NCBI GenBank assembly: GCA_037440465.1
Contig: JBBIUB010000001.1
Span: forward strand, 20,307-84,306
Direction: 5' to 3'
DNA from: Coprothermobacterota bacterium
Lineage (GTDB): Bacteria > Coprothermobacterota > HKB111
Length of the DNA stretch: 64,000 nt
Under the pieces are notes generated by a model. It made no database searches, was not told where the DNA came from, and worked only from the letters and a program-made list of their open reading frames with translations. Shown in pieces: positions 4,873 to 50,316 of the stretch (its first letter is position 1; each line of letters opens with the position of its first letter). Position numbers and translations under genes: made by a program.

Positions 4873-4884
4873 AGGTGATAAGTC

Positions 4885-5754
4885 GTGATAACAAATAATC
4901 AAATTGATAGTGGTAAGGTAGTAAGAAAAAGAATCTTTAGCAGAATGTTAAGAAATCGCTCTATGACTATTGGGTTTAGCTTAGTCATGCTAATGGTTGT
5001 AATAGCAATTATTGCTCCTATTGTATCTCCATTTGGACCAATGGATATAGATCCAAATTTACGCCTGAAACCTCCAAATAAAACACATATATTCGGAACT
5101 GATAACATTGGGCAGGATGTTTTCAGCAGAGCACTATGGGGTTCAAGAATATCTCTACTTACAGGTTTTCTTATTGTGCTAACAGCTGGAAGTTTAGGAA
5201 TTGTCCTGGGATTAATTGCAGGGTATTCCAGAAGTTTTGATGCTATTACCATGAGAATACTTGATGGACTCATGGCTTTCCCAACAACCCTTCTCGCTAT
5301 AGCTCTGATGGCTGTATTAGGTGCAAGATTATCTAATGTTATCATCGCCCTGGCAATTGTTTATACCCCTTCAGTAACAAGGGTAGTTCGTAGTGTTGTT
5401 TTAGTCATTAAGGAAACTGAGTATATTGAAGCTGCTCGTTCTATAGGTAACTCTAATCTACGTATTATATTGAAGCACATACTACCTAACTGCATGGCTC
5501 CCATAATAGTTCAGGGAAGTTTTATTTTCGCTCAATCCATTCTGGCTGAAGCTGCTCTGAGTTTTCTGGGCGTAGGTGTACCACCCTGGATACCTAGCTG
5601 GGGTAGCATTATGACTGGCGGAAGATTATTTATCAATGTTGCTCCCTGGATAATTTTCTTTCCAGGATTGTTTGTTCTGGTGACTGTTCTCGGGCTGAAT
5701 CTTTTTGGAGATGGGTTACGAGATGTGCTTGACCCAAGACTTAGAGGTCTTTAG
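4885..5754 (+). CDS. ABC transporter permease (DppC/OppC-like)
   Basis: A 289-aa membrane protein with N-terminal OppC-type topology and the EAA-like loop IEAARSIGNSNLRIILKHILPN. It is 12 nt downstream of the previous permease. Confidence 0.85.
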   Translation: MITNNQIDSGKVVRKRIFSRMLRNRSMTIGFSLVMLMVVIAIIAPIVSPFGPMDIDPNLRLKPPNKTHIFGTDNIGQDVFSRALWGSRISLLTGFLIVLTAGSLGIVLGLIAGYSRSFDAITMRILDGLMAFPTTLLAIALMAVLGARLSNVIIALAIVYTPSVTRVVRSVVLVIKETEYIEAARSIGNSNLRIILKHILPNCMAPIIVQGSFIFAQSILAEAALSFLGVGVPPWIPSWGSIMTGGRLFINVAPWIIFFPGLFVLVTVLGLNLFGDGLRDVLDPRLRGL

Positions 5755-6829
5755 TCGAAATTACCTTAAGGAGAAAATCACGATTTAGCTCGGCCCTTTC
5801 CATCAGGGGAGGGAGAGCACTGGAAAGTTTATCTTTAACCGAAGAACTCTCCTCCATTATTCTGGAGATTTCATATATTAGATCAGCAGGGTTAACCTTA
5901 TCCATCGGTAGGATTATCCCCGTTCCTATTTCTTCAACAAGGTTAACCAGCTTAGGGTCATATGCCAATCCGATAAAAGGTACTCCAGTTACGACAGCAG
6001 ATATTAAAGGGTGAAGTCTTGATGCCATTACTAATTTTGCCCTCCCTATAATACCCAACATTACCCTTGGAGAACAATCATTCTCCAAATAATAAGCTCT
6101 CTCTTTTAATCTTTCCTTAATCAAGTTTAAGGCTTTTCGATCAAGACGAGGGTAAAAAGGTGCCACCAGAATCTCAAGACCAAACTCTTCTTTCAAGTAA
6201 AGAACACTCTGAATAAGCGCTTCAATAGAAACTGGTTTATCAACTGCCTTGGACGGAGATAGAAAAATGTAAGGCTTGCTTCTTATTCCCGTTGAATCTA
6301 ATATTTCATCTCCCGCATCGTAATCAGGTTTCAAAAGAAAAGCCAGATCAGCAGTTAGTTGTAAATAGTCTTTAAATCCAAGGCTTCTTATCAATTCTAA
6401 AGATACTTTATCACGAACACTCACAGCTTTTACTTTCTTAAGGACTTGCGACAGAAGTTTGAGACTTAAAGGTGAAATAAAAGGCCCTATTCCCTGAGCT
6501 AAAAGAATTGTAGGAACATTAAAAATCTGAGCTAAAAAAATTAGAGCAAGATAATAATAAAGACTCCTTCTGCTGGTCACATCCTGTAGTAAACCTCCTC
6601 CTCCACTTATGAAAAGGTCGGCTTTCCTTATCTCTGAGGCAATTACTGAAAAGTCATTGCGAGATATGGCTCTAATTTTAAACCTGGAAAAGGTATTAAT
6701 AGCCCGAGCAGATAGAACAACAATTTCTACTTCTGGGGAAATATCCCTCATAAGATTCACCAGAACCTCAAGAATAGCTTCATCCCCGACATTACCAAAT
6801 CCATAATATCCTGATACTACAATTCTCAA
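5741..6829 (-). CDS. csaB: Polysaccharide pyruvyl transferase CsaB
   Basis: The N-terminus MRIVVSGYYGFGNVGDEAIL is the hallmark of the CsaB/PS_pyruv_trans family. Its 3' end overlaps the convergent permease gene by 14 nt. Confidence 0.8.
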   Translation of the reverse strand: MRIVVSGYYGFGNVGDEAILEVLVNLMRDISPEVEIVVLSARAINTFSRFKIRAISRNDFSVIASEIRKADLFISGGGGLLQDVTSRRSLYYYLALIFLAQIFNVPTILLAQGIGPFISPLSLKLLSQVLKKVKAVSVRDKVSLELIRSLGFKDYLQLTADLAFLLKPDYDAGDEILDSTGIRSKPYIFLSPSKAVDKPVSIEALIQSVLYLKEEFGLEILVAPFYPRLDRKALNLIKERLKERAYYLENDCSPRVMLGIIGRAKLVMASRLHPLISAVVTGVPFIGLAYDPKLVNLVEEIGTGIILPMDKVNPADLIYEISRIMEESSSVKDKLSSALPPLMERAELNRDFLLKVISTKDL

Positions 6830-7533
6830 GGCAATCCTCGTTTTATAAATACTGTAATCAACCTAATAATGGTTAATAATAAACGTCGTAATCTTCGGGG
6901 TTCTTTAGTTGTTCGGTACAACCACTCCAATCCAAGACTTGTGAAAAAAAAGGGTGCTCTATGAGATTCACCACTCCAGACATCTATGGACCCCCCTACA
7001 CCGATAGTGGGTAAATTCAGCTCTTTCTTATTTGTATATATCCATATCTCTTGCTTGGGGGTACCCATCCCTACTATTAATAATGAAGAATCATTATCTT
7101 TAATATCTTTAATAATATTTTCATCGTTTTCAAAATAACCATCATGAAACCCTACTATATTAACACCATATTCTTGGCTTAGACTAAGATATGCTTTTTC
7201 TACAATAGAAGGTTTTGAACCAAGTAAATAAACTTTGGTATCAGGATAATGACTTAATATCTCTTCAGTCAGCTCTATTCCAGGAATAGCTTTCATTCGA
7301 ATGCCTTTGAACAACCTAACCAGAAAAGCCACCCATCTGCCATCTGAAACTACCAGAGAAGCTTCTTTAATAACTTTAGCTAAATTATCATCAATCAGGG
7401 CTAAACTCAATATCTCAAGGTTAAGTGTGACAACCTGGTAGAAGATTCCATCTTTTGTAGCAAGATGAATATTTTCAGCTGCCTTTTCAAGAGTTATGTT
7501 GTCTACCGGGATATCCCATAGGAAACATCTCAT
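6826..7533 (-). CDS. tagA: WecB/TagA/CpsF-family glycosyltransferase (probable N-acetylmannosaminyltransferase TagA)
   Basis: It is 235 aa, which is the TagA family size, and has a central LLGSKPSIVEKAYLSLSQEYGVNIVGFHDGYF block. It overlaps csaB by 4 nt. Confidence 0.8.
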   Translation of the reverse strand: MRCFLWDIPVDNITLEKAAENIHLATKDGIFYQVVTLNLEILSLALIDDNLAKVIKEASLVVSDGRWVAFLVRLFKGIRMKAIPGIELTEEILSHYPDTKVYLLGSKPSIVEKAYLSLSQEYGVNIVGFHDGYFENDENIIKDIKDNDSSLLIVGMGTPKQEIWIYTNKKELNLPTIGVGGSIDVWSGESHRAPFFFTSLGLEWLYRTTKEPRRLRRLLLTIIRLITVFIKRGLP

Positions 7534-8816
7534 AGTGAAAAGACAGTAAACCCTTCTTTTATAAGCTCATCTGCTATAAAAAGCCCTTTAAGGTCAACGA
7601 CTAATACGCTATCACCAACTATATGCTTGAGATAAGATGGTTTTAAAGTTAAATACTCCTGCTGAATGCCTGCTATAACTATTGCTTTAGCGTTATTTAG
7701 ACACTCTATCAGGTTTTCTGCTTCTTTACCAACTCCTGTCTTCACGAGAGGATCGTATGAATAAACATTAAAACCCGCTTTTATGAGAAGTTTTTTTAGT
7801 TTATATGCTGGACTAAGCCTAAAACTTGATGAAAAATCTTTCATAGCTTGACCAAGTAAGGCTATTTTTATTTGATCATAAGGAAGATTACTAAAGTATC
7901 CTTTTAAGATTGACACGATTTTCTCAGGAATTTGAGAGTTTAACTTCCTAGCTTTTGAGGAAAGTGAAAGTTTTCGTTCTTTAGAAGAAATGTGAGCAAG
8001 ATAGTAATAGGCATAAGGTATGCAATGTCCACCCACTCCTGGGCCTGGATTAAGGATATTAACCCTCTTATGAGTATTAGCGAGTCTGATCGCTTCCCTA
8101 CCCTTTATACCCTTAGAAGTAAGAAAATAAGCTACTTCATTAGCAAAAGCAATATTAACATCCCTTTGAAGATTTTCGAGCACTTTTGATGCTTCAACTT
8201 CCTTTAAAGAACTTACATGAAAAACACCCTTTGAAATGATCAATAAACACTGTTTTGCCCTTTCTATGCTTCCCTGGTTTATACCACCAAGAACAACATC
8301 CATATCTCTAAGCTCTTCAAAAGCTTTACCTTCCTGCATTCTCTCAGAAGCATATGCCAGGAAAAAATCATCTCCGCCTTTTAACCCACTTCTTTTCTCA
8401 AGGATAGGAAGAGCTATTTCTTCAGTAAAACCTGGATACACTGTACTTCTAATTAGAACCAGATCACCTTTTTTAAGGTTCTTACTTATTCCTTCAAGGC
8501 AACGCAATATAGCTGAAGAATCCAGTTTTTCTCCTTTTACCCCAATGCCTACTGTTACGATGATATCCTTTGGTCCTTCTAATTCTGCAGGTAAAAAAGT
8601 ATTAAGCTTTAATTTTCCACTTTCATTAGCCCATGATAGAATTTCTTTTATAGTACGACCTCTATCTTCTTCTTGAAAATTAACATTATTGCTCTTAAGG
8701 TTTTTTATGTGTTTTTCATTTATATCAATTCCAATAACAGAAAAATCATTTAGAACATATGTAAGAGCCAGGGGTAAGCCGACTGCACCTAAACCAAAGA
8801 CTATTATTTTATTCAT
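7530..8816 (-). CDS. UDP-N-acetyl-D-mannosamine (nucleotide-sugar) dehydrogenase
   Basis: The N-terminus MNKIIVFGLGAVGLPLA is a Rossmann GxGxxG fold, and the protein has UDP-glucose/GDP-mannose dehydrogenase family architecture. I took the start at the internal Met, which forms an ATGA overlap with the upstream gene's stop. Confidence 0.75.
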   Translation of the reverse strand: MNKIIVFGLGAVGLPLALTYVLNDFSVIGIDINEKHIKNLKSNNVNFQEEDRGRTIKEILSWANESGKLKLNTFLPAELEGPKDIIVTVGIGVKGEKLDSSAILRCLEGISKNLKKGDLVLIRSTVYPGFTEEIALPILEKRSGLKGGDDFFLAYASERMQEGKAFEELRDMDVVLGGINQGSIERAKQCLLIISKGVFHVSSLKEVEASKVLENLQRDVNIAFANEVAYFLTSKGIKGREAIRLANTHKRVNILNPGPGVGGHCIPYAYYYLAHISSKERKLSLSSKARKLNSQIPEKIVSILKGYFSNLPYDQIKIALLGQAMKDFSSSFRLSPAYKLKKLLIKAGFNVYSYDPLVKTGVGKEAENLIECLNNAKAIVIAGIQQEYLTLKPSYLKHIVGDSVLVVDLKGLFIADELIKEGFTVFSL

Positions 8817-9925
8817 GGAATTACTACTCCTTCCATTAGTTTTTGGTAAAGCCACTCTGTACGTTCCAGCATATGTTTTAAATTAAACCTGAGTAATACT
8901 TGCTTTCTGCCATTATTTCCCAGATTTTTTCTTAATTCTTCATCTTTAAGAAGAGTCACTACCTCCTTAGCAAGACATACTGTGTCTTTACGGGAGAAAA
9001 GAACTCCAGTTTTACCATGGGCGATAACTTCTTCTATTCCACCCACCTTTGAGGCTACCACTGGGACTCCGAGTCCCATGGTTTCAACAATAGCTAAACC
9101 CATTCCTTCCATAAGAGAGGGAAAAACCCCTACAGTAAAACAGGATATCTCACTATAGACATCTTTTACCCGACCAGTAAAAACTACGTATCTGTCAACG
9201 CCAAGTTCTTTAGCTTTCTGGTAAAGCCTGTCTTTAAGAGGCCCATCACCAATAAAACGAACTTCAACCTTTCCAAATTCTCTTAATATATAAGGGAGAG
9301 CCTCAAGAAGATAAATCTGCCCTTTTACCGTTACTAACCTTCCAACAGTACCTATAATTGGAGGATTACATGGAGTTAATAGATAGTTATTTAGAAGAGT
9401 TTCGTCAATACCATTATATACAACTTCAATATTAGAAAGCTTTAATCCTCTTCTTAAAAGATGTAAAAGAACAGCCCTGGAAACAGCTACATAAACATCT
9501 GTCATAGAACGGGTAATTGTATCAGCTATAGTAGCTGCTACTCCCCAAAGAGAGTTTGCGTAATCATATAAAGGTATACTATGAACTGTGGTTACTATCT
9601 TAGGAATTTCTCCCTTTCTCCGAGAAGCCCATCGTCCATAAAAATTTGCACGAACACCATGAGTATGCAGTATATGTAAATCTTCTTTTGCTAATACTGA
9701 AGGAAGGGTATTTAAAAAACTATAACCTAAAAAAGCTTTATATGGTAAAATTAGCGTAGGAATTCCAAGAGCTTCTGCTTCCTCCACGAGTGGTCCCTCT
9801 CCAAGGGCAATTATCATTGGTGAAAATAATTCCCGATTAATATGAGAAAGAAGGGTCAACAAATGTTGTTTTGCACCACCTGTATCACCTCCACCGATTA
9901 AATGAGCTACCTTGATTTTACTCAA
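8813..9925 (-). CDS. Glycosyltransferase family 4
   Basis: It has a GT4 N-terminal domain (KVAHLIGGGDTGGAKQHLL) and the C-terminal EGMGLAIVETMGLGVPVVASKVGG motif of GT1/GT4 enzymes. Confidence 0.8.
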   Translation of the reverse strand: MSKIKVAHLIGGGDTGGAKQHLLTLLSHINRELFSPMIIALGEGPLVEEAEALGIPTLILPYKAFLGYSFLNTLPSVLAKEDLHILHTHGVRANFYGRWASRRKGEIPKIVTTVHSIPLYDYANSLWGVAATIADTITRSMTDVYVAVSRAVLLHLLRRGLKLSNIEVVYNGIDETLLNNYLLTPCNPPIIGTVGRLVTVKGQIYLLEALPYILREFGKVEVRFIGDGPLKDRLYQKAKELGVDRYVVFTGRVKDVYSEISCFTVGVFPSLMEGMGLAIVETMGLGVPVVASKVGGIEEVIAHGKTGVLFSRKDTVCLAKEVVTLLKDEELRKNLGNNGRKQVLLRFNLKHMLERTEWLYQKLMEGVVIP

Positions 9926-9928
9926 GAT

Positions 9929-11125
9929 TTATCCTACTTTTATTAAGGACTGCAAGTGTTCGCTCAACCTAAAAGTTAATATTTCTCTATCAAAACAGTC
10001 TCTTCTGAAATCCTGGTTCACATCAACGTGCATAGAAGAATTATATATTTTTACAAGCTCCTTTAAAATCTCTTCTTTTTTGTTATTATAGATAATGATG
10101 CTATTTCTATAATCTTTTAGTACCCTGTCAATAAAACCACCGACTGGTGCTAATGCCAGGATAAATTTATTGAGAAATATATAATCAAATATCTTCGTTG
10201 TTGGTTCATATATATGCTCTCCAGCTATAACAAGTCCAACTTTACCACCCTTAATATACTGTAGAGCCTCGTGGTATGGCTTATAACCAACGAGATAACA
10301 ATATGACCCGAGTGAATAAGATTCAATCATATTTACTATTAATTCTTCAGGATGGCCAACCCAGACAAATTTCATGTCTTCTGGTGAGAGAGAATGATTC
10401 ATTATAAACTGTTTAAAAGCCTTAAAAAAAGGTTTAGGGTTTCTGAAACTATCAAACTTACCGGTATATACTATATCAAAATTAGAAAAACTAATCCCTT
10501 CTCCGGCAGCTTCCAGGTCTTCCCTATCAAAGCCATTAGGTATAGTTATAAATTTCTCTTTACTATAATTACCATACCTCTCCTGATACATATTTGTAGC
10601 TTCATCAGTAACATTTATTATCAAATCAGCATTCTTGATTAGTAGAGGTTCAAGAAGAGATTCAAGGATTCTTGCTCCTTGTGAAAAAAGTGTTTTTTTT
10701 GTCTTTCTATATGGATTTAAAGACCAAGGATCTCTGAAATCTAAAACATATGGTAGTTTATAAAATTTCTTAAGAAAATAGGCAGAAACCCAATGATAGA
10801 ATGGTCCACCATTAAAATAAACAACTTGTGGCTTGAAAGATTTTATCTCCTTCAAAAGATGTAGCCAGAGTATTGGTAGCCAGTATAAACCCTCTTCATA
10901 GACAGCGGGAATAAATCTTCTTAATCTTTTTGTTTTAACAATATCTAAATGTTCGACTTCTTTCAAAAGTGAATTATTCTTAAAATTCCTGAATTTATCT
11001 TCTACAGTCAGTACTTTGACAACCCAATTCAATCTCGAAAGGTACTTTGCAAACTTAGCTACTCTTATGGCTCCCACAACTCCATCTGGGGGAAAGTGAT
11101 ATGCTACAACTAATATTTTTCTCAC
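9929..11125 (-). CDS. Glycosyltransferase (GT4-like)
   Basis: The N-terminus MRKILVVAYHFPPDGVVGAIRVAKFAKYL is typical of GT4 N-terminal domains. The gene sits in the polysaccharide operon. Confidence 0.6.
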   Translation of the reverse strand: MRKILVVAYHFPPDGVVGAIRVAKFAKYLSRLNWVVKVLTVEDKFRNFKNNSLLKEVEHLDIVKTKRLRRFIPAVYEEGLYWLPILWLHLLKEIKSFKPQVVYFNGGPFYHWVSAYFLKKFYKLPYVLDFRDPWSLNPYRKTKKTLFSQGARILESLLEPLLIKNADLIINVTDEATNMYQERYGNYSKEKFITIPNGFDREDLEAAGEGISFSNFDIVYTGKFDSFRNPKPFFKAFKQFIMNHSLSPEDMKFVWVGHPEELIVNMIESYSLGSYCYLVGYKPYHEALQYIKGGKVGLVIAGEHIYEPTTKIFDYIFLNKFILALAPVGGFIDRVLKDYRNSIIIYNNKKEEILKELVKIYNSSMHVDVNQDFRRDCFDREILTFRLSEHLQSLIKVG

Positions 11126-12735
11126 ATTTCCTCACCAAGATATACGAGCGCTGCTGCTAACATGGAAAAATACACGACCATTCCCGGGGCATCCCAGAGA
11201 TTTTCAACGCCATTATGAAGGAAAAAGGCTATCATAGAAATTAAACCTCCAAGTGTTAGGAATCTTAGAGATAAGAGCTTATTTTTATCAAGAAGAACCC
11301 AAAGACCATACCGAAAGAGAATAAGAAATAAAAGTAAAAAGGATATCCCTCCAATTAAACCTACTTCCGCGAACATTTTTAGAAGATAACTATCTACAGA
11401 TATTCCCTGAAAAAATCCATGCTTTATAGCAGGTCCACCACCAAAAGTTCCAGGTCCACTACCCAACCAAAGATTTTCTTTTATATGATCTAGAGCCATT
11501 AACCAACGAGAAAGCCTCCCTCCTGCAGTAAGACTTTTACTTATATATTCGGGAGAAAAAAGAAATAAGATTCTATGAGCCAATGTAGGTGCAACTAAAT
11601 ATGATATTCCACTGCCAAAAAGAAAAATTATAAGAATAAGTGGACCAGATAAAACAGCCAGGAAAGCTACTGCTGCCCCCAAAGCTAAAAAAGCTCCCCT
11701 GGCAAAGGTTAGGGCTATAGATACAGAATTAATCAGAAGGACAAGTCCCCATAATACCCTTTTACTCCATTGTTTTGATGCCAGTAGCAAGCTAATTGAA
11801 GTACCAATACCGAATAAAAGATAACCAGCTAGAAAGTTAGGGCTTCCAATAATAGAGAAAGCCCTGGTTCTAATAATAAGCGCTTCATAATCAACATCTA
11901 CCCATCCGACGGGCATGTCAAATCCAAGAACATATTGAAAAATACCTATAACTCCCAAAAACAAGCAGCTAACAGCAATGAAAGAAAAGACTTTTTCTGG
12001 TTTTTTGTCGATTTTTAGGAAAATGTAAATTACAAAGAAAATTAAGGTAGGTAAAGTTATACTTCTTAACCCTTCTATATTGATAAATAGAGGGTAAGGA
12101 GATAAAAAGGCGCTTAAAATGATTAAATAGTAAAACAATAACAAATAAAAACCATAGGCTGGAAACTTTACCTTATACTTAATACCTAAAATAAAAGTGA
12201 GGGATAGGAAAATTAATAGAAATATTTCATCCCAGTATCCTCTTAATGAAGTAAAACGTCTAAAAAATAAGTCAAAGAAGGGAAAGAAAGCCCAAAAAGG
12301 TACAGCAATATTCCTCATTAATTCTGTCCACCAATTTTGAAGGGTATTAATAATAACACTGTTTTTTATAGGAGATAATTCATAAAAAATATATATTAAG
12401 AAGAAAAATAAAGAAATACCAAAAATCACAAAGAAAGTAGCAAGTGATACACCCCAGTACTTTAATATTATTATGTTGCCAATAATTAAAATAAACGCAA
12501 TTATTAATGATAAATCTCTAAAAGATAATTGTACGAAATACTCATATCCTTTTAAAACCAGGGAATATATTAAAGAAGATTCTAAATATCTATTAAGTTT
12601 TGAATAATAATATTTTGATGAAGAATTATCAATAATCTCAACGAAAGGGACCTTTGGTTTTTTTCTAAACCAGTTGAGGATAATACTTCCTTTAAAAAGT
12701 TGAATAAAAAAGCTATCTCCTGAAAATATACTCAT
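11122..12735 (-). CDS. O-antigen ligase / Wzy-like polysaccharide polymerase (polytopic membrane protein)
   Basis: A 537-aa protein with at least 10 predicted TM helices and a periplasmic loop with a WLGSGPGTFG-like motif, typical of the Wzy_C/O-antigen ligase family. Confidence 0.6.
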   Translation of the reverse strand: MSIFSGDSFFIQLFKGSIILNWFRKKPKVPFVEIIDNSSSKYYYSKLNRYLESSLIYSLVLKGYEYFVQLSFRDLSLIIAFILIIGNIIILKYWGVSLATFFVIFGISLFFFLIYIFYELSPIKNSVIINTLQNWWTELMRNIAVPFWAFFPFFDLFFRRFTSLRGYWDEIFLLIFLSLTFILGIKYKVKFPAYGFYLLLFYYLIILSAFLSPYPLFINIEGLRSITLPTLIFFVIYIFLKIDKKPEKVFSFIAVSCLFLGVIGIFQYVLGFDMPVGWVDVDYEALIIRTRAFSIIGSPNFLAGYLLFGIGTSISLLLASKQWSKRVLWGLVLLINSVSIALTFARGAFLALGAAVAFLAVLSGPLILIIFLFGSGISYLVAPTLAHRILFLFSPEYISKSLTAGGRLSRWLMALDHIKENLWLGSGPGTFGGGPAIKHGFFQGISVDSYLLKMFAEVGLIGGISFLLLFLILFRYGLWVLLDKNKLLSLRFLTLGGLISMIAFFLHNGVENLWDAPGMVVYFSMLAAALVYLGEEM

Positions 12736-13597
12736 TTTTTATCCTGATTAACTCTGATTCATCAAGAACCCAATAATCAAGACCGCCGATATTCTGACCT
12801 CTGCCAGGAATTGTTTTGAATACCACATCTTCTAAAGTAATACTTCTCAATGATAAAGCAAGAGGAATAAGGTTTTTATTAGGAAGGTCTGTACGAACAT
12901 AATTGTAAAATATTCCACTCAATTGTCGTATTTGAAGTAACCTCTCAGGTTTTAAGAATTCTTTAATAAACGCTTTAAAGAATTCCTGTTGAACTTTAAT
13001 TCTGTCAATATCACCCGTAGGGTAATGCCTGAAACGCAAAACACCCAGCGATTGCTCTCCAGTTAAATTATAAGTTCCAGCTGGTACATATATATGAGGT
13101 TCTGTCAGATTATCTCTAAGTTCCTGACTAACTGTAAAAGGTACTCCCCCTAACTCATCTACTAATAACTTAAAGGCTTCAAAGTTAATCTCAGCATAAT
13201 AATCAACCTCCACATCAAGAAGTTTTCCAATTGTTTCTCTAAGAAGTGAGATTCCCCCATAAACTCTCGCATGATTTACTTTCTGAAAACCATAATCAGG
13301 TATTTCTACTCTACTATCCCTTGGTATAGATATACCATAAGCTATATCTTCCTTTGTTTGAATGGAAACAAGAAGGATAATATCTGAGCGTGCTTTCTCT
13401 AAACCATTGTGACCATCTATGCCACTAACAAGAATGTTTAAAGCAGAAGGTATCCTGCCTTCCTCGCTAATAACTCCAAGAGATTTGAAGGATAAAGAAG
13501 AGAAAAATGAATAAAAACCCCAGGTTTCATAGATTAAAAGAGTCATGCTGCAAAAAAGAAGTACTATTATTATAAAACTACGATTTAATTTTATCAT
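12713..13597 (-). CDS. LytR-CpsA-Psr (LCP) family phosphotransferase
   Basis: It has an N-terminal TM anchor and an LCP core (SDIILLVSIQTKEDIAYGISIPRDSRVEIPDYGFQKVNHA). Confidence 0.8.
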   Translation of the reverse strand: MIKLNRSFIIIVLLFCSMTLLIYETWGFYSFFSSLSFKSLGVISEEGRIPSALNILVSGIDGHNGLEKARSDIILLVSIQTKEDIAYGISIPRDSRVEIPDYGFQKVNHARVYGGISLLRETIGKLLDVEVDYYAEINFEAFKLLVDELGGVPFTVSQELRDNLTEPHIYVPAGTYNLTGEQSLGVLRFRHYPTGDIDRIKVQQEFFKAFIKEFLKPERLLQIRQLSGIFYNYVRTDLPNKNLIPLALSLRSITLEDVVFKTIPGRGQNIGGLDYWVLDESELIRIKNEYIFRR

Positions 13598-15158
13598 TAG
13601 AAGATCTCCTGATTATATGAATATATTGCTTGAGAACATCAGATTTCAATAGATAATTAGCAAAAAGGTAAATTAATACTCCGACTACAATATTACCTGA
13701 TACTTCAATCAACCTAAGCCTTAAAGAAAAAGTTTCCAATTTAAAAGTAAGGTAAGGTGAAAGAAAGTATAATGATACTCCCATAAGTAAACTACTGAAT
13801 ACAGTTTTAAGTAGTTCTTCCACTCTAATGCTCATACCAAGCCCTTTAAGTCTTGGCCTTAAAAAAACAACAAGAAGAATAAGAAGAAAGAATGCTCCCA
13901 ATGATGAACCTAAAGCCAATCCAGATACTCCCCAGATTTTTGCAAAGAAATAATACATTATAGTCTGGACAAGTATGGTAATAACACCGAGAAAGGTTGG
14001 TATTTTTGGTTCCTGAAGGGAATAAAAAGCCCTAATAAAAATACTATTTACACCATGAGCCCAAACACCGAGACTATATACTTTTAATACAGAAGCTGTT
14101 ACCAGGGCTGCTTCTCTGGTAAATTCTCCCCATTCAAAAAGGAGTCTAACTATAGGGTAACTTAATAGGAAGATTCCCACAGCAGCGGGGAGTAGGAAAA
14201 ATGAAGTTGCAGAAACACCCCAGGAAAGGTTTTTTTTCAATGTTAAATAATCTTCCTCTGCTGCACTCTTTGAAAGTGTGGGTAAAAGAACTGTAGAGAT
14301 AGCCAAACCAAAGAGCGCATAAGGAAGTTGTATAATGCGAGAAGCTACTCCCACAATTGTTATGGCACCTTCACCAATAAGTGAAGCAATTGCTTTTTCA
14401 ATGATGGGATTAATTTGATATATTGCTAATCCAAGAAGAACTGGCATGCTCATTATAACAACTTTTTTTATGCCAGGATGCTTGAAGTTTATCCCACTTC
14501 TAAAATCGTGTCTAACTAAATGTAAGGTCCATCCCAGAATAAACCATGTTGTAAGACTTCCTATAACTAATCCCCAGGAAGTGCTAACTATCCCAATTAA
14601 AGAAGCTCCTATAAGTATTGTTAGTACTATACATCCATTAAATAACAACCCGGATAGTGAAGGTGCTCGGAAATCTCCTCTACAATGAAGAGTAGCCATA
14701 AAACCTCCAGCCCCTACTAAAGGGAGAATACCTATGGATGCTATCCTTAAAAGAGATATTGTCAACTCTTTTCCTTCAGCGGACATAAAGGGAGCAAGAA
14801 TTAAAGTTAAAGTAGGAGCAAAAACAATTGAAAGAAAGGCGAGAATTCCTCCTATAATGAGAAGGCCAAGAAAAAAAGTATTAGATAGAATTTCAAAAAT
14901 TTTTCCTTTTTCTCTTGATAGAACAGGTACAAAAGATGAGGTTACAATGCCTCCAGTAAGAAGAGCATAAAGGAGAAGGGGGAATGTAAGAGCTACCATA
15001 TATGCATCAGTAAAAATAGACTTGCCATAAAGACTGGTAACAAGTAAATCTCTGAAGTAACCCAAAACCCTACCAGCAATTATTCCAAGCATTAAGAAGG
15101 TACTATTTAATACCAGAGAATGGGAAATAACATCCATTTGTGGTGATTCTTGATTCAT
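13578..15158 (-). CDS. murJ: MurJ/MviN-family lipid-linked oligosaccharide flippase
   Basis: A 526-aa protein with 14 predicted TM helices. The N-terminal signature GIIAGRVLGYFRDLLVTSLYG matches the MurJ consensus (SR-LGF-RD). Confidence 0.75.
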   Translation of the reverse strand: MNQESPQMDVISHSLVLNSTFLMLGIIAGRVLGYFRDLLVTSLYGKSIFTDAYMVALTFPLLLYALLTGGIVTSSFVPVLSREKGKIFEILSNTFFLGLLIIGGILAFLSIVFAPTLTLILAPFMSAEGKELTISLLRIASIGILPLVGAGGFMATLHCRGDFRAPSLSGLLFNGCIVLTILIGASLIGIVSTSWGLVIGSLTTWFILGWTLHLVRHDFRSGINFKHPGIKKVVIMSMPVLLGLAIYQINPIIEKAIASLIGEGAITIVGVASRIIQLPYALFGLAISTVLLPTLSKSAAEEDYLTLKKNLSWGVSATSFFLLPAAVGIFLLSYPIVRLLFEWGEFTREAALVTASVLKVYSLGVWAHGVNSIFIRAFYSLQEPKIPTFLGVITILVQTIMYYFFAKIWGVSGLALGSSLGAFFLLILLVVFLRPRLKGLGMSIRVEELLKTVFSSLLMGVSLYFLSPYLTFKLETFSLRLRLIEVSGNIVVGVLIYLFANYLLKSDVLKQYIHIIRRSSNDKIKS

Positions 15159-15199
15159 TTATAACTGATTCCGGTAAGTTATTATCTTGTTTTTGGACA

Positions 15200-15655
15200 C
15201 TACTCGACTGGTTTTACAGATAATATAGTGACTTCTATTTTACCCTTATTGGTCTCTAAGGGTACTCTCGCCCCTGCTTTTATTGAATGGCGATTGTATA
15301 CTAAAACACCAGCTGGGATTGGAACAAGGATTTTTGATTTAAACCTGACGCTCTTCATTACAGGGTGTTTACTCCAGTGAATTTTTCCATCTGCTGCGAA
15401 GACAGTTAAGTAGCTATCTTCTAAAGATAGTTCTACGATCTCCATTACCGCCCTACCTGTAGAATCAATAATCTTGTCTCCAACATGAATACTTGAAGCT
15501 ACTTCCGGGTGAAGGTGAAGAGAAAGTGATTCAACTAAATAAGGTTGAAACTGTAAAAGAGAAGATTCTTTCTTCATAAATTTCCAAGCACCAAGAGAAA
15601 TAATTCCTATGATCACACAAATAATAATCAAGTCAAAAAGATTAAATTTCTTCAT
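15200..15655 (-). CDS. Hypothetical membrane-anchored protein
   Basis: A single N-terminal TM helix (MKKFNLFDLIIICVIIGIISLGAW) precedes a soluble domain. I took the start at the internal Met to avoid overlapping murA. It has no recognisable family. Confidence 0.4.
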   Translation of the reverse strand: MKKFNLFDLIIICVIIGIISLGAWKFMKKESSLLQFQPYLVESLSLHLHPEVASSIHVGDKIIDSTGRAVMEIVELSLEDSYLTVFAADGKIHWSKHPVMKSVRFKSKILVPIPAGVLVYNRHSIKAGARVPLETNKGKIEVTILSVKPVE

Positions 15656-16922
15656 TAGCCTTAACCTCCTCTTTTGAAGAAGAAATATCTGCACCAAGGT
15701 TTTTTAGTTTGCCTATCATGTTTTCATAACCTCTATGAATATGTTCAGTACCATATATTCGAGTTTCACCTTCAGCTGATAAACCAGCAAGAACAAGAGC
15801 GCTACCTGCTCTTATGTCAGTCGCTTCTACATCAGCACTGAATAATTTATCTACTCCCTGAATAACTGCTTGTCTTCCTTCAACAGCTATCTGCGCACCC
15901 ATCTTGTTTAATTCTCTAACATGTTGAAAACGACTCTCAAAAACTGTTTCTACAACTAACGAAGTTCCTTCGGAAACAGCAAGAAGAGTAGTCATCTGGG
16001 GTTGAAGGTCAGTCGGAAAACCAGGGAAAGGTAAGGTTTTAATATTTGTTGCCATGGGTTTCTCTTTGGCAATTGCTCTGATGTGAGTACCATTCTGTAT
16101 CATTACCTGTATTCCCATCTCCTTTAGCTTATATAGTAAAGGATTTAAAAATCTTGGGTCTACATCTTTGACAGTCACATCTCCTCTCGTTAAAACTCCA
16201 CCAATCAGAAAAGTCCCTGCTTCAAGTGGATCTGAAGGAAGGGGAAAGATAACAGGAGAAAGCTTTTCTACCCCTTTAATCCTTAAAGTATGACTACCCA
16301 AACCCCAAATTTTTACACCACAAGTTTTAAGGAAATTACCAAGATCTACAACCTGGGGTTCTTGTGCAGCATTATCTATGACAACTTCTTTTGGTAAAAG
16401 AGACGCAAAAAGCATCAGGTTTTCAGTAGCTCCTACACTCGGGTAATCAAGGTAAACCCGGTTAGCCTTTTTAGCCATCACTTTAGCATGGATTAAACCA
16501 GATGAAAGGTCAAATTTAACGCCCAGAGCTTCTAAGCCTTTAATATGAAGATCTATGGGGCGTTGTCCAATATTACATCCACCAGGATAAGGTAAAAAAA
16601 CCTCTCCTTCCCTTGCAAGCATCGCACCAAGAAGGAAAATGGAGCCTCTAATTGTAGAGAAAATAGGGTTAGATATCTCTTTCTTTAATCTTCCCGGAAC
16701 TTTTATTTTTATCTGATGTTTTTCTGGTAATGCTTTTATCTTACAACCAAGTTCTTCTTGTAGCTTAAGCATAATCTGGGCATCTCCAACGTTTGGAGAA
16801 TTGGTAAATACCCAGCTACCTTCAGACAATAGAGCTCCAGCTAATACTGGTAGAGCTGTATTTTTGGCCCCAGCTGGTTTCACAACTCCACTTAGCCTTG
16901 AACCTCCAATTATTTTAATCAT
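15642..16922 (-). CDS. murA: UDP-N-acetylglucosamine 1-carboxyvinyltransferase
   Basis: It begins MIKIIGGSRLSGVVKPAGAKNTALPVLAGALL and is full length. The active-site Cys region is present (GGCNIGQRPIDLH). Confidence 0.9.
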   Translation of the reverse strand: MIKIIGGSRLSGVVKPAGAKNTALPVLAGALLSEGSWVFTNSPNVGDAQIMLKLQEELGCKIKALPEKHQIKIKVPGRLKKEISNPIFSTIRGSIFLLGAMLAREGEVFLPYPGGCNIGQRPIDLHIKGLEALGVKFDLSSGLIHAKVMAKKANRVYLDYPSVGATENLMLFASLLPKEVVIDNAAQEPQVVDLGNFLKTCGVKIWGLGSHTLRIKGVEKLSPVIFPLPSDPLEAGTFLIGGVLTRGDVTVKDVDPRFLNPLLYKLKEMGIQVMIQNGTHIRAIAKEKPMATNIKTLPFPGFPTDLQPQMTTLLAVSEGTSLVVETVFESRFQHVRELNKMGAQIAVEGRQAVIQGVDKLFSADVEATDIRAGSALVLAGLSAEGETRIYGTEHIHRGYENMIGKLKNLGADISSSKEEVKANEEI

Positions 16923-18060
16923 TATTGCAACCTCCTTTTTTAAATTCATCCGGTTTATGTGGAGAAAGCCCTAAGAACCATTTTATACCTTGAATAACTC
17001 TTTGAGAAGCCATTCCATCACCAAAAGGATTATCCCCTATTCTTGCAAATTTATCAAAGGGAATATTCAAGATTTTGACTACATTATTATATACATCTTT
17101 TCTATTTAAGCCACTTATAAAAATAAAACCTGTTTCAACACCTTCTGGTCTCTCTGTAACCCTTCTCGTTAATACAAGGGGTTTTTTAAGATAGGTCACC
17201 TCCTCCTGAATTCCACCTGAATCTGTAATTATTAAGCGTGATTTTTGTATAAGTCGAACGAAATTCTCATAACTCTGTGGTGGTACCATCTTTACCTTGG
17301 AACAGTCACTAAAAATTTCTTCAGCCACTTTTTTAACCTTTGGGTTTGGGTGAACTGGAAAGATTACTTTTATATATGGGAAACTATCAAGGACATCTTT
17401 TATACCAAGAAGAATTTCCTTCATAGGAGAACCCCAACTTTCCCTACGGTGAACTTCCAGAAGAATAAAATCATCAAATATTTCTTCTTTATCAACTTTA
17501 TCTTTAGTATTCTCAAGAATCCACTTCAAGGCATCTATAACAGTATTACCAGTAACTAATATAGATTCACCAGAAATACCTTCAGATAAGAGGTTTCTTT
17601 TAGCAATTGAAGTTGGTGCAAAGTGTAAATTTGTAAGAATACCTGTTAAAATCCTGTTAGCTTCCTCTGGGAAGGGTTCTCTAATAGAACCACTCCGTAA
17701 ACCAGCTTCTATATGAGCTAAAGGAATGTTTCGATAAAATGATGTAAGAGCTCCTGCAAAGGCAGTTGTGGTATCTCCTTGCACTACAACCATAACTGGC
17801 TTTTCATTTACCATTATACTATTTAAACCTTTAAGAGATTCTACAGTAATATCCATTAAATCCTGATTTTCCTTCATGATGTTAAGGTCTTGATTTACTG
17901 AAATACTGAATGTAGATAGAACCTGGTCTAATAAATTCCGATGCTGTGCTGTTAGAACAACAACAGGTTCAAGGTCAGGATCTTTCTTCATTGCCATAAT
18001 CACTGGAGCAAGTTTTATTGCTTCTGGTCTTGTCCCAAACACAAATAACACTTTAACCAT
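16915..18060 (-). CDS. mnaA: UDP-N-acetylglucosamine 2-epimerase (non-hydrolysing)
   Basis: It begins MVKVLFVFGTRPEAIKLAPVI and has the HIEAGLRS motif of the WecB/MnaA family. Confidence 0.9.
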   Translation of the reverse strand: MVKVLFVFGTRPEAIKLAPVIMAMKKDPDLEPVVVLTAQHRNLLDQVLSTFSISVNQDLNIMKENQDLMDITVESLKGLNSIMVNEKPVMVVVQGDTTTAFAGALTSFYRNIPLAHIEAGLRSGSIREPFPEEANRILTGILTNLHFAPTSIAKRNLLSEGISGESILVTGNTVIDALKWILENTKDKVDKEEIFDDFILLEVHRRESWGSPMKEILLGIKDVLDSFPYIKVIFPVHPNPKVKKVAEEIFSDCSKVKMVPPQSYENFVRLIQKSRLIITDSGGIQEEVTYLKKPLVLTRRVTERPEGVETGFIFISGLNRKDVYNNVVKILNIPFDKFARIGDNPFGDGMASQRVIQGIKWFLGLSPHKPDEFKKGGCNND

Positions 18061-18062
18061 TT

Positions 18063-19010
18063 CTACCTAATACCTACATATACAGCCAGATAAGCCAGAG
18101 AAGCAGAAATAATATACAGAAATATAGTTACCTGTAATGGGCTAAATCCGAGAGAAAGTAAACGGTGATGAATATGTCCTTTATCAGCCTCAAAAACAGA
18201 AACTCCTTTTAATTTTCTTCTTATTATTGCATAAGCTACATCTAATATAGGAAGCGCAAGAATAATAAGAGATGCAGCTAATACTGTTATAGTAGTTCTT
18301 TTAAGGGCTCCAAGAATGCTGATAGCACTTAATAAATATCCAAGAGTCAAAGCACCACTATCCCCTAAGAATATACGTGCTTTGGGGAAATTATATATTA
18401 AAAAACCAAGCAGAGAACCTGCGATTATTATACTCAAATAAGCAACTTCCGTTATCCCTTTACTTCTGGCAATAGTATGAAAAGCAAAGCTCGAAATAAT
18501 TACAACACCAGATGAAAGACCATCAAGACCATCTATAAAATTTATAGCATTTGATACCCCTACTACCCACAGAATAGTTAGAGGGTATTTAATTCCATCA
18601 AAAGCTAAATAACCCCAGGGAGTATTGACACCACGGATAAACACTCCACAAGCTACAAGTACTACGGCTCCTGCTATCTGTCCAATAAATTTATGTCTCG
18701 CTCTTAGGTGATATTTATCATCCAAAACACCTGTGATCCAGAAAATCAATCCTCCAGTAATGATACCGACAATCTCTAAATCCCTGATACCAAAAATTAT
18801 TAGAGTAATTATGGAAATTAAGGGGTATAAAAATAGACCTCCTGAACGAGGTAATGGTTTATTGTGGACTCTCCTTGGTGACGGAAGATCCATAAAACCC
18901 CATCGTCGTCCAAAATAAATAAAAATGGGTGTTAGTAAGATAGAAGCTAACAGTGCAATACAAAAATAGATTGAATAATTATTTAGTACCAAATAATCTA
19001 TCTCCAGCAT
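18063..19010 (-). CDS. tagO: Undecaprenyl-phosphate GlcNAc-1-phosphate transferase (WecA/TagO, MraY superfamily)
   Basis: A 315-aa polytopic membrane protein with the PSPRRVHNKPLPRSGG motif of the WecA/MraY family. Confidence 0.85.
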   Translation of the reverse strand: MLEIDYLVLNNYSIYFCIALLASILLTPIFIYFGRRWGFMDLPSPRRVHNKPLPRSGGLFLYPLISIITLIIFGIRDLEIVGIITGGLIFWITGVLDDKYHLRARHKFIGQIAGAVVLVACGVFIRGVNTPWGYLAFDGIKYPLTILWVVGVSNAINFIDGLDGLSSGVVIISSFAFHTIARSKGITEVAYLSIIIAGSLLGFLIYNFPKARIFLGDSGALTLGYLLSAISILGALKRTTITVLAASLIILALPILDVAYAIIRRKLKGVSVFEADKGHIHHRLLSLGFSPLQVTIFLYIISASLAYLAVYVGIR

Positions 19011-20924: not shown

Positions 20925-21000
20925 TGGTGCGCCCGAGAGGATTCGAACCTCCAGCCTACGGCTCCGGAGGCCGTCGCTCTATCCATTGAGCTACGAGCGC
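20925..21000 (-). tRNA. tRNA-Arg (anticodon CCG)
   Basis: The minus-strand sequence is GCGCTCGTAGCTCAATGGATAGAGCGACGGCCTCCGGAGCCGTAGGCTGGAGGTTCGAATCCTCTCGGGCGCACCA. It folds as a cloverleaf with a 7-bp acceptor stem, a TTCGAAT T-loop, anticodon loop CTCCGGA, and an encoded CCA. Confidence 0.85.
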
Positions 21001-21058
21001 TTTATCCATCTTTTAATTATACCCTACTCAGTTTCTTATTAAAAACCTTTTTTATTAT

Positions 21059-25119: not shown

Positions 25120-25194
25120 TGGAGCCGGCAGAGGGAGTTGGACCCTCAACCTGCTGATTACGATTCAGCTGCTCTACCATTGAGCTACACCGGC
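25120..25194 (-). tRNA. tRNA-Thr (anticodon CGT)
   Basis: The minus-strand sequence is GCCGGTGTAGCTCAATGGTAGAGCAGCTGAATCGTAATCAGCAGGTTGAGGGTCCAACTCCCTCTGCCGGCTCCA. It has a 7-bp acceptor stem with two G-U pairs, anticodon loop ATCGTAA, and an encoded CCA. The T-loop TCCAACT is slightly atypical. Confidence 0.75.
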
Positions 25195-26581: not shown

Positions 26582-26595
26582 CGAGAGACTTAGAA

Positions 26596-27624: not shown

Positions 27625-27628
27625 GAGG

Positions 27629-49032: not shown

Positions 49033-49083
49033 CTATACTCCTGAAAGAATAGGGGGAGGTTGAGAACCTCCCCCCACCAGGTC

Positions 49084-50151: not shown

Positions 50152-50316
50152 TTTCCTTTTCCTCCTTACAAGAATTACTTAGAAATTTTACTTTCTTTCT
50201 AAGTTTAACAAAAAACTATTCTTCGCACTGAATCTTTACTATAAAACAACCTCCTTTCTTTCTTAATTTTTCAACTATAAACTTTTTCTTTACAATCTCA
50301 CACATTACTATTTATT

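Follow-up and report, generated by a model that had tools for sequence, protein, structure and literature searches.

[quoted passage not shown] An earlier note on this DNA had proposed a pyruvylated polymer anchoring SLH proteins, and this was the reading that fitted best. Every family named there was found by profile search, although two products of the string, MurA and DUF4330, had been left undescribed. The features discussed below were the following:

1744..3852 (alternative start 1678), plus strand: SLH-domain solute-binding protein (SBP_bac_5), predicted polymer client; SLH 85.1 bits (2 repeats), SBP_bac_5 209 bits
5741..6829, minus strand: csaB, ketal-pyruvyl transferase; PS_pyruv_trans PF04230, 173.7 bits; TIGR03609
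6826..7533, minus strand: tagA, putative GT26 TagA-like beta-ManNAc transferase; Glyco_tran_WecG/TagA PF03808, 164.9 bits, full length
7530..8816 (or to 8855), minus strand: NDP-N-acetylhexosamine 6-dehydrogenase; three UDPG_MGDP_dh domains
8813..9925, minus strand: GT4 retaining-type glycosyltransferase (GT4a); Glycos_transf_1 125.7 bits, Glyco_transf_4 73.8 bits
9929..11125, minus strand: GT4-like glycosyltransferase (GT4b); PF13439, 49.3 bits, residues 21-202, N-terminal domain only
11122..12735, minus strand: Wzy_C-family polytopic membrane protein, predicted repeat-unit polymerase; PF04932, 35.1 bits (cut-off 31.7)
12713..13597, minus strand: LCP (LytR-CpsA-Psr) glycopolymer-to-peptidoglycan transferase; LytR_cpsA_psr PF03816, 129.3 bits
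13578..15158, minus strand: MurJ-family MOP flippase; MurJ PF03023, 275.9 bits
15200..15655, minus strand: DUF4330 protein, N-terminal membrane helix and a domain of ~120 aa; PF14221, 47.6 bits
15642..16922, minus strand: murA, UDP-GlcNAc 1-carboxyvinyltransferase; TIGR01072 equivalog, 466.7 vs. 392.7
16915..18060, minus strand: mnaA/wecB, non-hydrolysing UDP-GlcNAc 2-epimerase, UDP-ManNAc supply; Epimerase_2 PF02350, 326.7 bits
18063..19010, minus strand: tagO/wecA-like polyprenyl-phosphate HexNAc-1-phosphate transferase, predicted initiating enzyme; Glycos_transf_4 PF00953, 134.6 bits
18979..20901, minus strand: upp, rpiB and degV; Pfam; gaps -32, -4 and +4 nt
20925..21000, minus strand: tRNA-Arg(CCG), 23 nt upstream of degV
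33140..35167, minus strand: SLH-domain 5'-nucleotidase, predicted polymer client; SLH 37.7 bits, Metallophos and 5_nucleotid_C

The csaB product passed the CsaB equivalog TIGR03609 (260.7 vs. a cut-off of 213.1), and its AF2 model (pLDDT 89.7) showed a GT-B-like fold. Residues R139, H273 and K293 were invariant, in a pattern matching the PEP-binding residues R148/H308/K328 of Paenibacillus alvei CsaB (PMC10435577), with an H-K spacing of 20 residues in both proteins. The proposed CsaB and TagA fell within their expected families rather than in unrelated ones. The dehydrogenase passed the generic NDP-sugar subfamily model TIGR03026 (281 vs. 190), yet remained below the cut-offs of the ManNAc-specific equivalogs (236 < 750 and 174 < 459). 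Its nearest solved relatives were UDP-ManNAc(A) dehydrogenases (4R16, 199 bits; Cap5O, 179 bits), UDP-Glc dehydrogenases scoring at most 80; judged by these homologues, it is most likely the UDP-ManNAc dehydrogenase it had been taken for, a call that holds for the family and not at the equivalog level. The roles given to TagO/WecA in initiation and to MnaA in ManNAc supply were supported by the PF00953 match of the former, whose top NCBIfam match was wecA (117 bits, below the cut-off of 326) followed by MraY (80), and by the latter passing the wecB equivalog TIGR00236 (420.4 vs. 210). MurA, for which the start giving 426 aa was used by gene callers, is a peptidoglycan precursor enzyme and lies outside the SCWP route.

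The two GT4 genes, the Wzy-like polymerase and the LCP gene were likewise matched by profiles, GT4b in its N-terminal domain only: its C-terminal part had no Pfam match even at E ≤ 1, and a recognisable donor-binding domain was absent. Homologues of GT4b adjoined the dehydrogenase gene in two other CsaB loci (L049 and L051), and GT4b is possibly a uronic-acid transferase. The Wzy_C family also includes ligases; no solved sequence relative was found for the Wzy_C protein of the window, and its gene had the lowest G+C of the region (0.308). The LCP product passed TIGR00350 (113.6 vs. 62.3), with MsrR, TagT and TagU as the nearest solved proteins. A further 80 CsaB loci were surveyed with 10-kb flanks and scored for 10 functions. 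DUF4330 homologues were present in 14 of the 15 loci that carried Wzy vs. none of the 65 without it (the assignment in L051 was confirmed by Pfam), which makes DUF4330 a candidate accessory of the Wzy-like polymerase. No chain-length regulator of known family was found at the locus.

Both SLH proteins called in the window were true by profile. The solute-binding protein carried a signal peptide and TRAE and SRAE motifs, its third repeat being degenerate, and the genes for its permease (3928-5754) are convergent with csaB. In the 5'-nucleotidase, inspection by eye gave a single clear repeat and two that are degenerate. No further SLH proteins were found in the 64 kb.

The tight packing reported for the twelve genes, their coordinates and their common strand were all borne out, with overlaps at 8 of the 11 junctions and a widest gap of 41 nt. 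The description as a single self-contained operon was not. The housekeeping genes degV, rpiB and upp, unrelated to the SCWP, continue the tight string on its upstream side: upp and the start of tagO share 32 nt, and no gap from degV to csaB exceeds 41 nt. The order degV-rpiB-upp was identical in three loci of other assemblies (L085, L086 and L087). A perfect TATAAT at 21017-21022, ~16 nt upstream of tRNA-Arg(CCG), may mark where the transcription unit begins, although promoter and terminator scans of the string gave no signal above chance level. Since upp overlaps tagO, no wider gap interrupts the string and murA lies inside it, the putative transcription unit would be larger than twelve genes and mixed. 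The SCWP-specific part, from the murJ-like gene to csaB, is attached to the housekeeping string degV-rpiB-upp-tagO-mnaA-murA, and therefore a mixed envelope-precursor super-operon fits better than a self-contained module.

At least three further assemblies from this lineage share the gene order (their CsaB is 60-67% identical), which is conserved in L083/L085, L084 and L086 and partly in L087; the named members are Ca. Lithacetigena glycinireducens. As the order was kept at only 54-67% protein identity, the arrangement is not due to chance. These are also the named relatives closest to the window and belong to the phylum Ca. Lithacetigenota; the source lineage is uncultured and related to that candidate phylum. 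The suggestion that it is Wood-Ljungdahl-capable found one hint in the window, a single methyltransferase-like gene below its cut-off.

In the proposed pathway, undecaprenyl phosphate would receive GlcNAc-1-P via TagO, UDP-ManNAc would be provided by MnaA, and beta-ManNAc would be added by the GT26 TagA-like enzyme, upon which CsaB would set a 4,6-pyruvate ketal from PEP on the lipid-linked ManNAc, as in P. alvei. The dehydrogenase would yield a UDP-HexNAc uronic acid, probably UDP-ManNAcA, and the repeat would be lengthened by the two GT4-like enzymes, the uronic acid probably being added by GT4b. The lipid-linked repeat would then be flipped by the MurJ-family protein, polymerized by the Wzy_C protein, probably together with the small membrane protein DUF4330, and transferred to peptidoglycan by the LCP enzyme; the SLH solute-binding protein and 5'-nucleotidase would dock on the pyruvylated ManNAc.

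This scheme can be questioned at the flippase step, given that the MurJ-like protein, confirmed in its family, could flip the lipid-linked SCWP repeat as had been claimed, lipid II, or both. It is somewhat unlikely, though a real possibility, that tagO-mnaA-murA-DUF4330-murJ is a general envelope-precursor string whose MurJ is the lipid II flippase of the cell, with only lcp-wzy-GT4-GT4-DH-tagA-csaB being SCWP-specific; the polymer flippase or exporter would then be encoded elsewhere, and the locus would not be a complete pathway. Consistent with this, the product passed the MurJ equivalog TIGR01695, of lipid II type (304 vs. 235.6), as the nearby MurA passed its own; its nearest solved relatives were lipid II flippases, and equivalents of R18, R24, D39 and R270 were kept (three of the four essential arginines). 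Moreover, upp-tagO-mnaA sit tightly among housekeeping genes of unrelated function, and the SCWP core of Tissierella praeacuta has no tagO, mnaA, flippase or lcp nearby. However, a Wzy-type polymerase requires a MOP flippase and the cluster holds no other; DUF4330, elsewhere beside Wzy, here lies directly upstream of murJ; and MurJ-like genes recur within CsaB/Wzy loci (17 of the 80, with a CsaB::MurJ fusion in locus L065), all with F or Y at the site equivalent to R52 of E. coli, where the window protein has Tyr. The sugar chemistry might also differ, in that GT26 would transfer ManNAcA in the manner of WecG, supplied by the dehydrogenase, and CsaB would pyruvylate another, GT4-added sugar, giving a polymer like enterobacterial common antigen (ECA) or teichuronic acid. 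We consider this improbable: ManNAcA has no 6-OH and cannot bear the 4,6-ketal bound by SLH domains, CsaB passed an SLH-associated equivalog, and the nearest solved relative of the GT26 product was TagA (7MPK, 138 bits), even though the dehydrogenase and GT26 genes overlap by 4 nt, the WecA/WecB/WecC-like/GT26/MOP/Wzy set mirrors the ECA core, and the NCBIfam scores for TarA (154 bits) and WecG (125 bits) were both below cut-off. Furthermore, as tagA adjoined csaB in 30 of the 80 loci and was fused to it in 2, whereas the dehydrogenase occurred in only 3, GT26 is associated with CsaB and not with the dehydrogenase.

The remaining alternatives concern the use of the polymer. Diderm Terrabacteria use CsaB/SLH tethering of the outer membrane (PMC10628300), Ca. 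Lithacetigenota lies phylogenetically close to Dictyoglomi and Coprothermobacterota (PMC9751293), and CsaB has homologues in Negativicutes, Sericytochromatia and Atribacterota, so that the lineage might be diderm and the polymer might mainly anchor an SLH-bearing OmpM-type porin instead of S-layer or wall proteins. This is unlikely, as OmpM, BAM and LPS genes were absent from the 64-kb window and the SLH clients seen there, the solute-binding protein and the 5'-nucleotidase, have ordinary signal peptides; this reading would in any case be compatible with the biosynthetic pathway itself. A capsule or exopolysaccharide locus without any tie to SLH anchoring is very hard to credit. GT4, Wzy, MOP and pyruvyl transferase genes do co-occur in xanthan and succinoglycan clusters (PMC6801904), but here the pyruvyl transferase matched CsaB at equivalog level and is unlike WcaK or GumL, TagO, TagA and LCP point to a polymer attached to peptidoglycan, genes for SLH proteins lie close by, and genes for a tyrosine kinase or PCP export were not found.

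The favored reading, a pyruvylated SCWP anchoring SLH proteins, has close parallels. The earlier view that these functions are scattered in Bacillus and Paenibacillus held for Bacillus anthracis (four clusters; PMC6801904) but not for P. alvei, where csaB-tagA-tagO are co-transcribed beside the SLH-protein genes slhA/spaA, MnaA being encoded elsewhere (PMC6030368). The window resembles P. alvei in the linkage of TagO, TagA and CsaB next to SLH-protein genes, and in the proposed pyruvylation of beta-ManNAc on a lipid-PP-GlcNAc-ManNAc intermediate (PMC6030368, PMC6801904), TagO, TagA and CsaB of P. alvei acting on a lipid-linked disaccharide (PMC6030368). It differs in adding mnaA, a MurJ-family flippase, Wzy_C, LCP, two GT4-like genes and a dehydrogenase, and in its order of tagA then csaB, the usual order being csaB then tagA (30 of 80 loci); the export and polymerisation route of P. 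alvei is stated to be unknown. The B. anthracis SCWP (csaB, tagO, tagA1/2, wpaA/B, lcp and a MATE-like flippase), for which a Wzx/Wzy-type model has been proposed, shares the functional categories and the SLH-pyruvate anchoring logic, yet only its terminal repeat is pyruvylated (PMC6801904), while the window has one string and a uronic-acid dehydrogenase. Claims of rarity held for the full set, with none of the 80 other CsaB loci exceeding 6 of the 10 functions (a 10-kb flank being too short to reach tagO and mnaA in a layout like that of the window), and not for its parts: full co-location is uncommon, sub-modules are common, and the SCWP-specific core recurs in Clostridia. Contiguous wall-polymer loci are also known, such as the Clostridioides difficile AP locus (PSII), with a MurJ/MviN homologue, LCP and glycosyltransferases beside anchored wall-protein genes (PMC4973711). 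That locus is without TagO, CsaB and pyruvate, and its clients carry CWB2 instead of SLH. The wec cluster of ECA (WecA, WecB, WecC, WecG, WzxE, WzyE) shares enzyme families with the window, namely HexNAc-1-P transferase, 2-epimerase, a UDP-ManNAc dehydrogenase type, GT26, MOP flippase and Wzy; it is without CsaB or LCP and its product is lipid- or LPS-linked, whereas the window is without WzzE and Fuc4NAc genes. An orthologous core that includes GT4b and GT4a was found in uncharacterised loci, in T. praeacuta DSM 18095 (L051; order DH-GT4-DUF4330x2-Wzy-GT4-CsaB-TagA) and in MAG L049, in both cases with csaB before tagA, the reverse of the window, and with no TagO, MnaA, MurJ-like or LCP gene within 10 kb. 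The locus is thus of a known kind, although unusually complete for a single site, and comes from an uncultured lineage.

Protein families in the window were assigned by profile search, using Pfam and the curated cut-offs of NCBIfam. Twelve co-directional ORFs on the minus strand occupied positions 5741-19010, and their families agreed with what the earlier note had claimed for this region; the ten functions listed there were all found, while murA and a DUF4330 gene, both within the same series, had been left out. Neighboring ORFs overlapped at eight of the 11 junctions, and the widest gap was 41 nt.

Genes between 5741 and 19010, with profile scores and, where given, curated cut-offs
18063-19010, minus strand: tagO/wecA-like; PF00953, 134.6 bits; WecA model 117 bits (below its cut-off of 326) vs. 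MraY 80
16915-18060, minus strand: mnaA/WecB 2-epimerase; equivalog TIGR00236, 420 (cut-off 210)
15642-16922, minus strand: murA; TIGR01072, 467 (393)
15200-15655, minus strand: DUF4330 (PF14221) protein; Pfam
13578-15158, minus strand: MurJ-family protein; equivalog TIGR01695, 304 (235.6)
12713-13597, minus strand: LCP transferase; PF03816, 129 bits, catalytic domain; TIGR00350, 113.6 (62.3); solved relatives TagT, TagU and MsrR
11122-12735, minus strand: Wzy_C polytopic membrane protein; PF04932, 35.1 (31.7), marginal
9929-11125, minus strand: GT4b, GT4-like, N-terminal domain alone recognized; Pfam
8813-9925, minus strand: GT4a, complete GT4; Pfam
7530-8816, minus strand: three-domain NDP-sugar dehydrogenase; PF03721, PF00984 and PF03720; TIGR03026, 281 (190)
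6826-7533, minus strand: GT26 TagA-like transferase; PF03808, 164.9 bits over 1-167 of 168; TIGR00696, 140 (69)
5741-6829, minus strand: csaB; equivalog TIGR03609, 260.7 (213.1); PF04230, 173.7 bits, full length

The TagO-like protein was thus nearer to WecA than to MraY in the NCBIfam models. The Wzy_C protein, for which a PDB profile search returned no solved sequence relative, would on its marginal match fit a polymerase or a ligase equally well. The G+C content fell to 0.308 at 12001-14000 (wzy and lcp), compared to approximately 0.36 in the rest of the window. Antisense ORFs within the gene region (8236-8676, 10394-10642, 14446-14688 and 17245-17559) were taken as spurious.

The strongest assignment in the locus was that of CsaB, whose family membership, as proposed, was borne out by the equivalog score; a confident GT-B-like model and conserved Arg, His and Lys residues are consistent with it. 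The AF2 model (pLDDT 89.7) showed a GT-B-like fold of two Rossmann domains, and the best PDB fold matches were generic GT-B enzymes (TM 0.6-0.7), a result consistent with the family but not discriminating; no solved sequence relative was found by PDB profile search. R139, H273, K293 and F11 did not vary among the 20 aligned homologues, and Y9 was nearly invariant. In the Paenibacillus alvei enzyme, R148, H308 and K328 bind PEP, and Y14 and F16 belong to the acceptor site (PMC10435577); the His-Lys spacing of 20 residues was the same in both proteins, the residues being mapped by motif and spacing only.

The ORFs of 80 csaB loci from species-representative genomes were searched with profiles derived iteratively from the window proteins. 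The contig scan behind this set did not return the lineage of the window, its best CsaB match being 35% identical. Several natural fusions were found in other taxa, the examples given here by coordinates being confirmed by Pfam, namely two CsaB::TagA ORFs of 666 and 588 aa (L008:9830-11827 and L082:1104-2867), GT4::CsaB ORFs of approximately 750 aa in about 15 loci (e.g., L025:8702-11059), and a single 885-residue ORF joining CsaB to a MurJ domain in an Oscillibacter MAG (L065:3043-5697); such fusions tie CsaB to partners in its pathway in the manner of Rosetta-stone links. In two unrelated loci, L038 and L054, csaB and tagA were separated by a murA gene in the opposite orientation, and proximity of murA and csaB therefore recurs occasionally elsewhere. 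Both MurA and CsaB use PEP.

The GT26 protein carried a full-length WecG/TagA/CpsF domain and its nearest solved protein was TagA (7MPK, 138 bits), in agreement with the proposed TagA family, although it remained below the cut-offs of the more specific TarA (NF041710, 154 vs. 350) and WecG (125 vs. 323) models. A tagA gene directly followed csaB in 30 of the 80 loci, the two being fused in a further layout seen twice, and a dehydrogenase gene was present in only three; the GT26 protein therefore belongs with CsaB rather than with the dehydrogenase. Biochemical work in P. alvei has established that a beta-ManNAc transferase provides the CsaB acceptor (PMC6030368). The GT26 protein fits this role, the assignment of ManNAc as its donor resting on the linkage to CsaB. 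As for the dehydrogenase, it passed the generic subfamily model but fell below the ManNAc-specific equivalogs (NF040825, 236 vs. 750; NF008286, 174 vs. 459); its nearest solved proteins were the UDP-ManNAcA dehydrogenase 4R16 (199 bits) and Cap5O (179 bits), whereas UDP-glucose dehydrogenases scored 80 bits or less. A UDP-ManNAc dehydrogenase is thus a reasonable inference from these similarities, yet the claim of a defined ManNAcA chemistry exceeds the evidence. Outside the lineage, GT4b homologues adjoined a dehydrogenase gene both in L049, a MAG locus, and in L051, from Tissierella praeacuta DSM 18095, and GT4b may be a uronic-acid transferase.

The MurJ-family protein could be the lipid II flippase of the cell or could export the secondary cell wall polymer (SCWP), alone or in addition. 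A lipid II role is favored by the MurJ equivalog score and by the neighboring murA gene. Alignment with solved MurJ showed that the equivalents of R18, R24, D39 and R270 (E. coli numbering) were kept, while position 52 was occupied by Tyr; R18, R24, R52 and R270 are the essential cavity residues of the E. coli protein. Tyr was also found at this position in three of the four lineage orthologues, the fourth, from locus L087, having His. In favor of a polymer role, 17 of the 80 loci had a MurJ-like gene no more than 10 kb from csaB, usually in the layout murJ-wzy-GT4-DUF4330-DUF4330-(GT4::csaB), and these CsaB-linked proteins (loci L003-L082 and the window) had Phe or Tyr at position 52 in nearly all cases, several of them without Arg270; this may mark a non-lipid-II subgroup of MurJ. 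The natural CsaB::MurJ fusion and the MurJ homologue inside the PSII locus of Clostridioides difficile (PMC4973711) point in the same direction. On balance, a role in SCWP export, or a dual role, appears somewhat better supported than lipid II transport alone; the family named in the earlier note was confirmed, but to call the protein a dedicated flippase of the polymer goes beyond the evidence.

The DUF4330 protein was associated with the polymerase candidate in other loci. Scored within CsaB-centered loci only, 14 of 15 loci with this type of Wzy had a DUF4330 homologue, and none of the 65 without Wzy did. The genes were often found as a tandem pair beside Wzy, the two copies in L051 being confirmed by Pfam.

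DUF4330 genes in other csaB loci
L051:6258-7228, T. praeacuta DSM 18095
L049:6072-7112, MAG locus

The protein has a single membrane helix at its N-terminus, together with a domain of some 120 residues. No mention of it was found in the literature searched, nor was any significant match to the PDB obtained with its profile (best E-value 0.04); a word-indexed homologue search recovered six members, all from the lineage, and an AF2 model based on six close homologues was of low quality (pLDDT 56). From its distribution we infer that DUF4330 could be an accessory of the polymerase. A more tentative proposal, which we regard as rather unlikely, is that two unrecognized parts of Wzy-dependent assembly are present, DUF4330 as an obligate partner of this Wzy type (e.g., a co-polymerase or chain-length factor) and the aromatic-52 MurJ subgroup as a dedicated flippase for pyruvylated repeats, the latter being supported by the CsaB::MurJ fusion. 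If this were true, no earlier route to a pyruvylated SCWP would have been fully specified in silico before that of this string.

Regarding the extent of the transcription unit, the minus-strand ORFs ran without a break from 25018 to 5741. The upp and tagO genes overlapped by 32 nt, with rpiB and degV directly upstream (junctions of -4 and +4 nt), and two tRNA genes, the only hits of the Rfam scan, which returned no riboswitch or leader, were embedded within the run of protein genes.

tRNA genes in the minus-strand run (Rfam)
20925-21000, minus strand: tRNA-Arg(CCG), 23 nt upstream of degV, inside the 157-nt lysS-degV space
25120-25194, minus strand: tRNA-Thr(CGU), heading the entire co-directional string

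Stated conservatively, a minimum of 15 protein genes, degV through csaB, make up a single tight string in which housekeeping, peptidoglycan and SCWP functions are mixed. Their spacing supports a probable co-transcription, and a perfect TATAAT approximately 16 nt upstream of tRNA-Arg(CCG) makes this a possible start of the unit. Consensus scans for promoters and terminators over 5.5-25.5 kb yielded 68 and 20 sites, respectively, compared to 60 and 13 expected, i.e., the level of shuffled sequence. The tight spacing of the proposed self-contained operon was recovered, but the string continues upstream of tagO through upp, rpiB and degV to the tRNA-Arg gene, and the claim of one self-contained operon exceeds the evidence.

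The same CsaB sequence was found on contig CAZLUH010000001.1 of MAG GCA_964562715.1. Its nearest homologues shared 60-67% identity with it and included a protein annotated as candidate division WS2 / Candidatus Lithacetigena glycinireducens; the next were at about 36%. The NCBI taxonomy assigns this genus to Ca. Lithacetigenota, a phylum without cultured members whose description came from hyperalkaline serpentinite springs (PMC9751293). Exact-protein look-ups showed the entire gene order (hypothetical, dehydrogenase-like, greA, lysS, degV, rpiB, upp, tagO, mnaA, murA, DUF4330, murJ, lcp, wzy, GT4, GT4, dehydrogenase, tagA, csaB) to be kept in two further loci of the lineage, L085 (Logan) and L086 (GCA_037446255.1), with part of it also present in L084 and L087; the arrangement is therefore inherited rather than a chance juxtaposition. 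An ORF of 303 aa (24107-25018, minus strand) without Pfam match, which heads the string, had conserved counterparts in the same position in L085-L087, likewise without Pfam match. Another ORF of 406 aa (42039-43259, plus strand) also had no Pfam match.

Both SLH-domain proteins claimed for the window were confirmed, and no third was found among all window ORFs.

SLH-domain proteins and the methyltransferase-like gene
1744-3852, plus strand: SLH and SBP_bac_5 solute-binding protein; signal peptide; two Pfam SLH repeats (TRAE, SRAE)
33140-35167, minus strand: SLH and 5'-nucleotidase; one Pfam SLH repeat
62662-63534, plus strand: methyl-THF:corrinoid/iron-sulfur protein methyltransferase-like; 218 bits vs. 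259; CODH/ACS methyltransferase model 187 vs. 370

Further repeats, all degenerate, were judged by eye: a third in the binding protein and two in the nucleotidase. The permease genes of the solute-binding protein converge on csaB. The SLH tags suggest retention of nutrient-scavenging proteins at the wall, and the predicted wall-anchored 5'-nucleotidase could feed the nucleoside-scavenging block at 43283-52126 (minus strand), which comprises an amidohydrolase, two inosine-uridine nucleoside hydrolases, a PnrA/Bmp-type ABC transporter and a ribokinase-type PfkB. Beyond the polymer locus, the window carried nucleoside salvage genes, a threonine dehydrogenase / 2-amino-3-ketobutyrate ligase-type pair, an S-adenosylhomocysteine hydrolase and other housekeeping genes. 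At 25577-28828 (plus strand), divergent from the long string and kept in L085 and L086, a 2,4-diaminopentanoate-dehydrogenase-like gene and a zinc alcohol/threonine-dehydrogenase-type gene were followed by a class I/II (Kbl-type) aminotransferase gene; these genes may form a unit of amino-acid catabolism that yields glycine, and relatives of the lineage reduce glycine. The MeTr/AcsE-like gene was the sole Wood-Ljungdahl-related gene in the window and scored below cut-off; it is the one hint in the window of the apparent Wood-Ljungdahl capability asserted earlier, and that context was set aside for the locus.

Taken by gene families, the reading of the locus as a pathway for a pyruvylated, ManNAc-containing SCWP with SLH clients nearby is largely right. 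Its logic is textbook and does not overturn current understanding; the locus is notable chiefly because it is so complete within one string and because its host is uncultured and deep-branching. It offers a concrete candidate gene for every step from initiation to wall attachment, and gives a first view of the envelope chemistry of relatives of Ca. Lithacetigenota. One may speculate that a polymer bearing carboxylates from both pyruvate and uronic acid would suit life under alkaline conditions; in an alkaliphilic Bacillus, mutation of csaB causes alkali sensitivity (PMC5938343).

As for rarity, csaB stood alone or with one other function in 56 of the 80 loci, the richest (L031, L034, L049 and L051) reached six functions and none held all ten, so that full co-location of SCWP genes looks uncommon, bearing in mind that the 10-kb flanks are too short to reach tagO or mnaA in a window-like layout and that GT4 counts are upper bounds, because the iterated GT4a profile drifted onto CsaB via the GT4::CsaB fusions. 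The arrangement had been called unusual, which applies to the full set; the SCWP-specific core is not unique, as T. praeacuta DSM 18095 has DH-GT4b-DUF4330-DUF4330-Wzy-GT4a-CsaB-TagA (DH, the dehydrogenase) with unrelated genes on both sides. The asserted scattering in Bacillus and Paenibacillus is half right: the SCWP genes of B. anthracis lie in four clusters (PMC6801904), but in P. alvei csaB-tagA-tagO are co-transcribed next to SLH-protein genes, with mnaA elsewhere (PMC6030368), and the wall-polymer locus of C. difficile is contiguous (PMC4973711). In the P. alvei model, the export and polymerization steps, for which the present string holds candidates, are still described as unknown (PMC6030368, PMC6801904).
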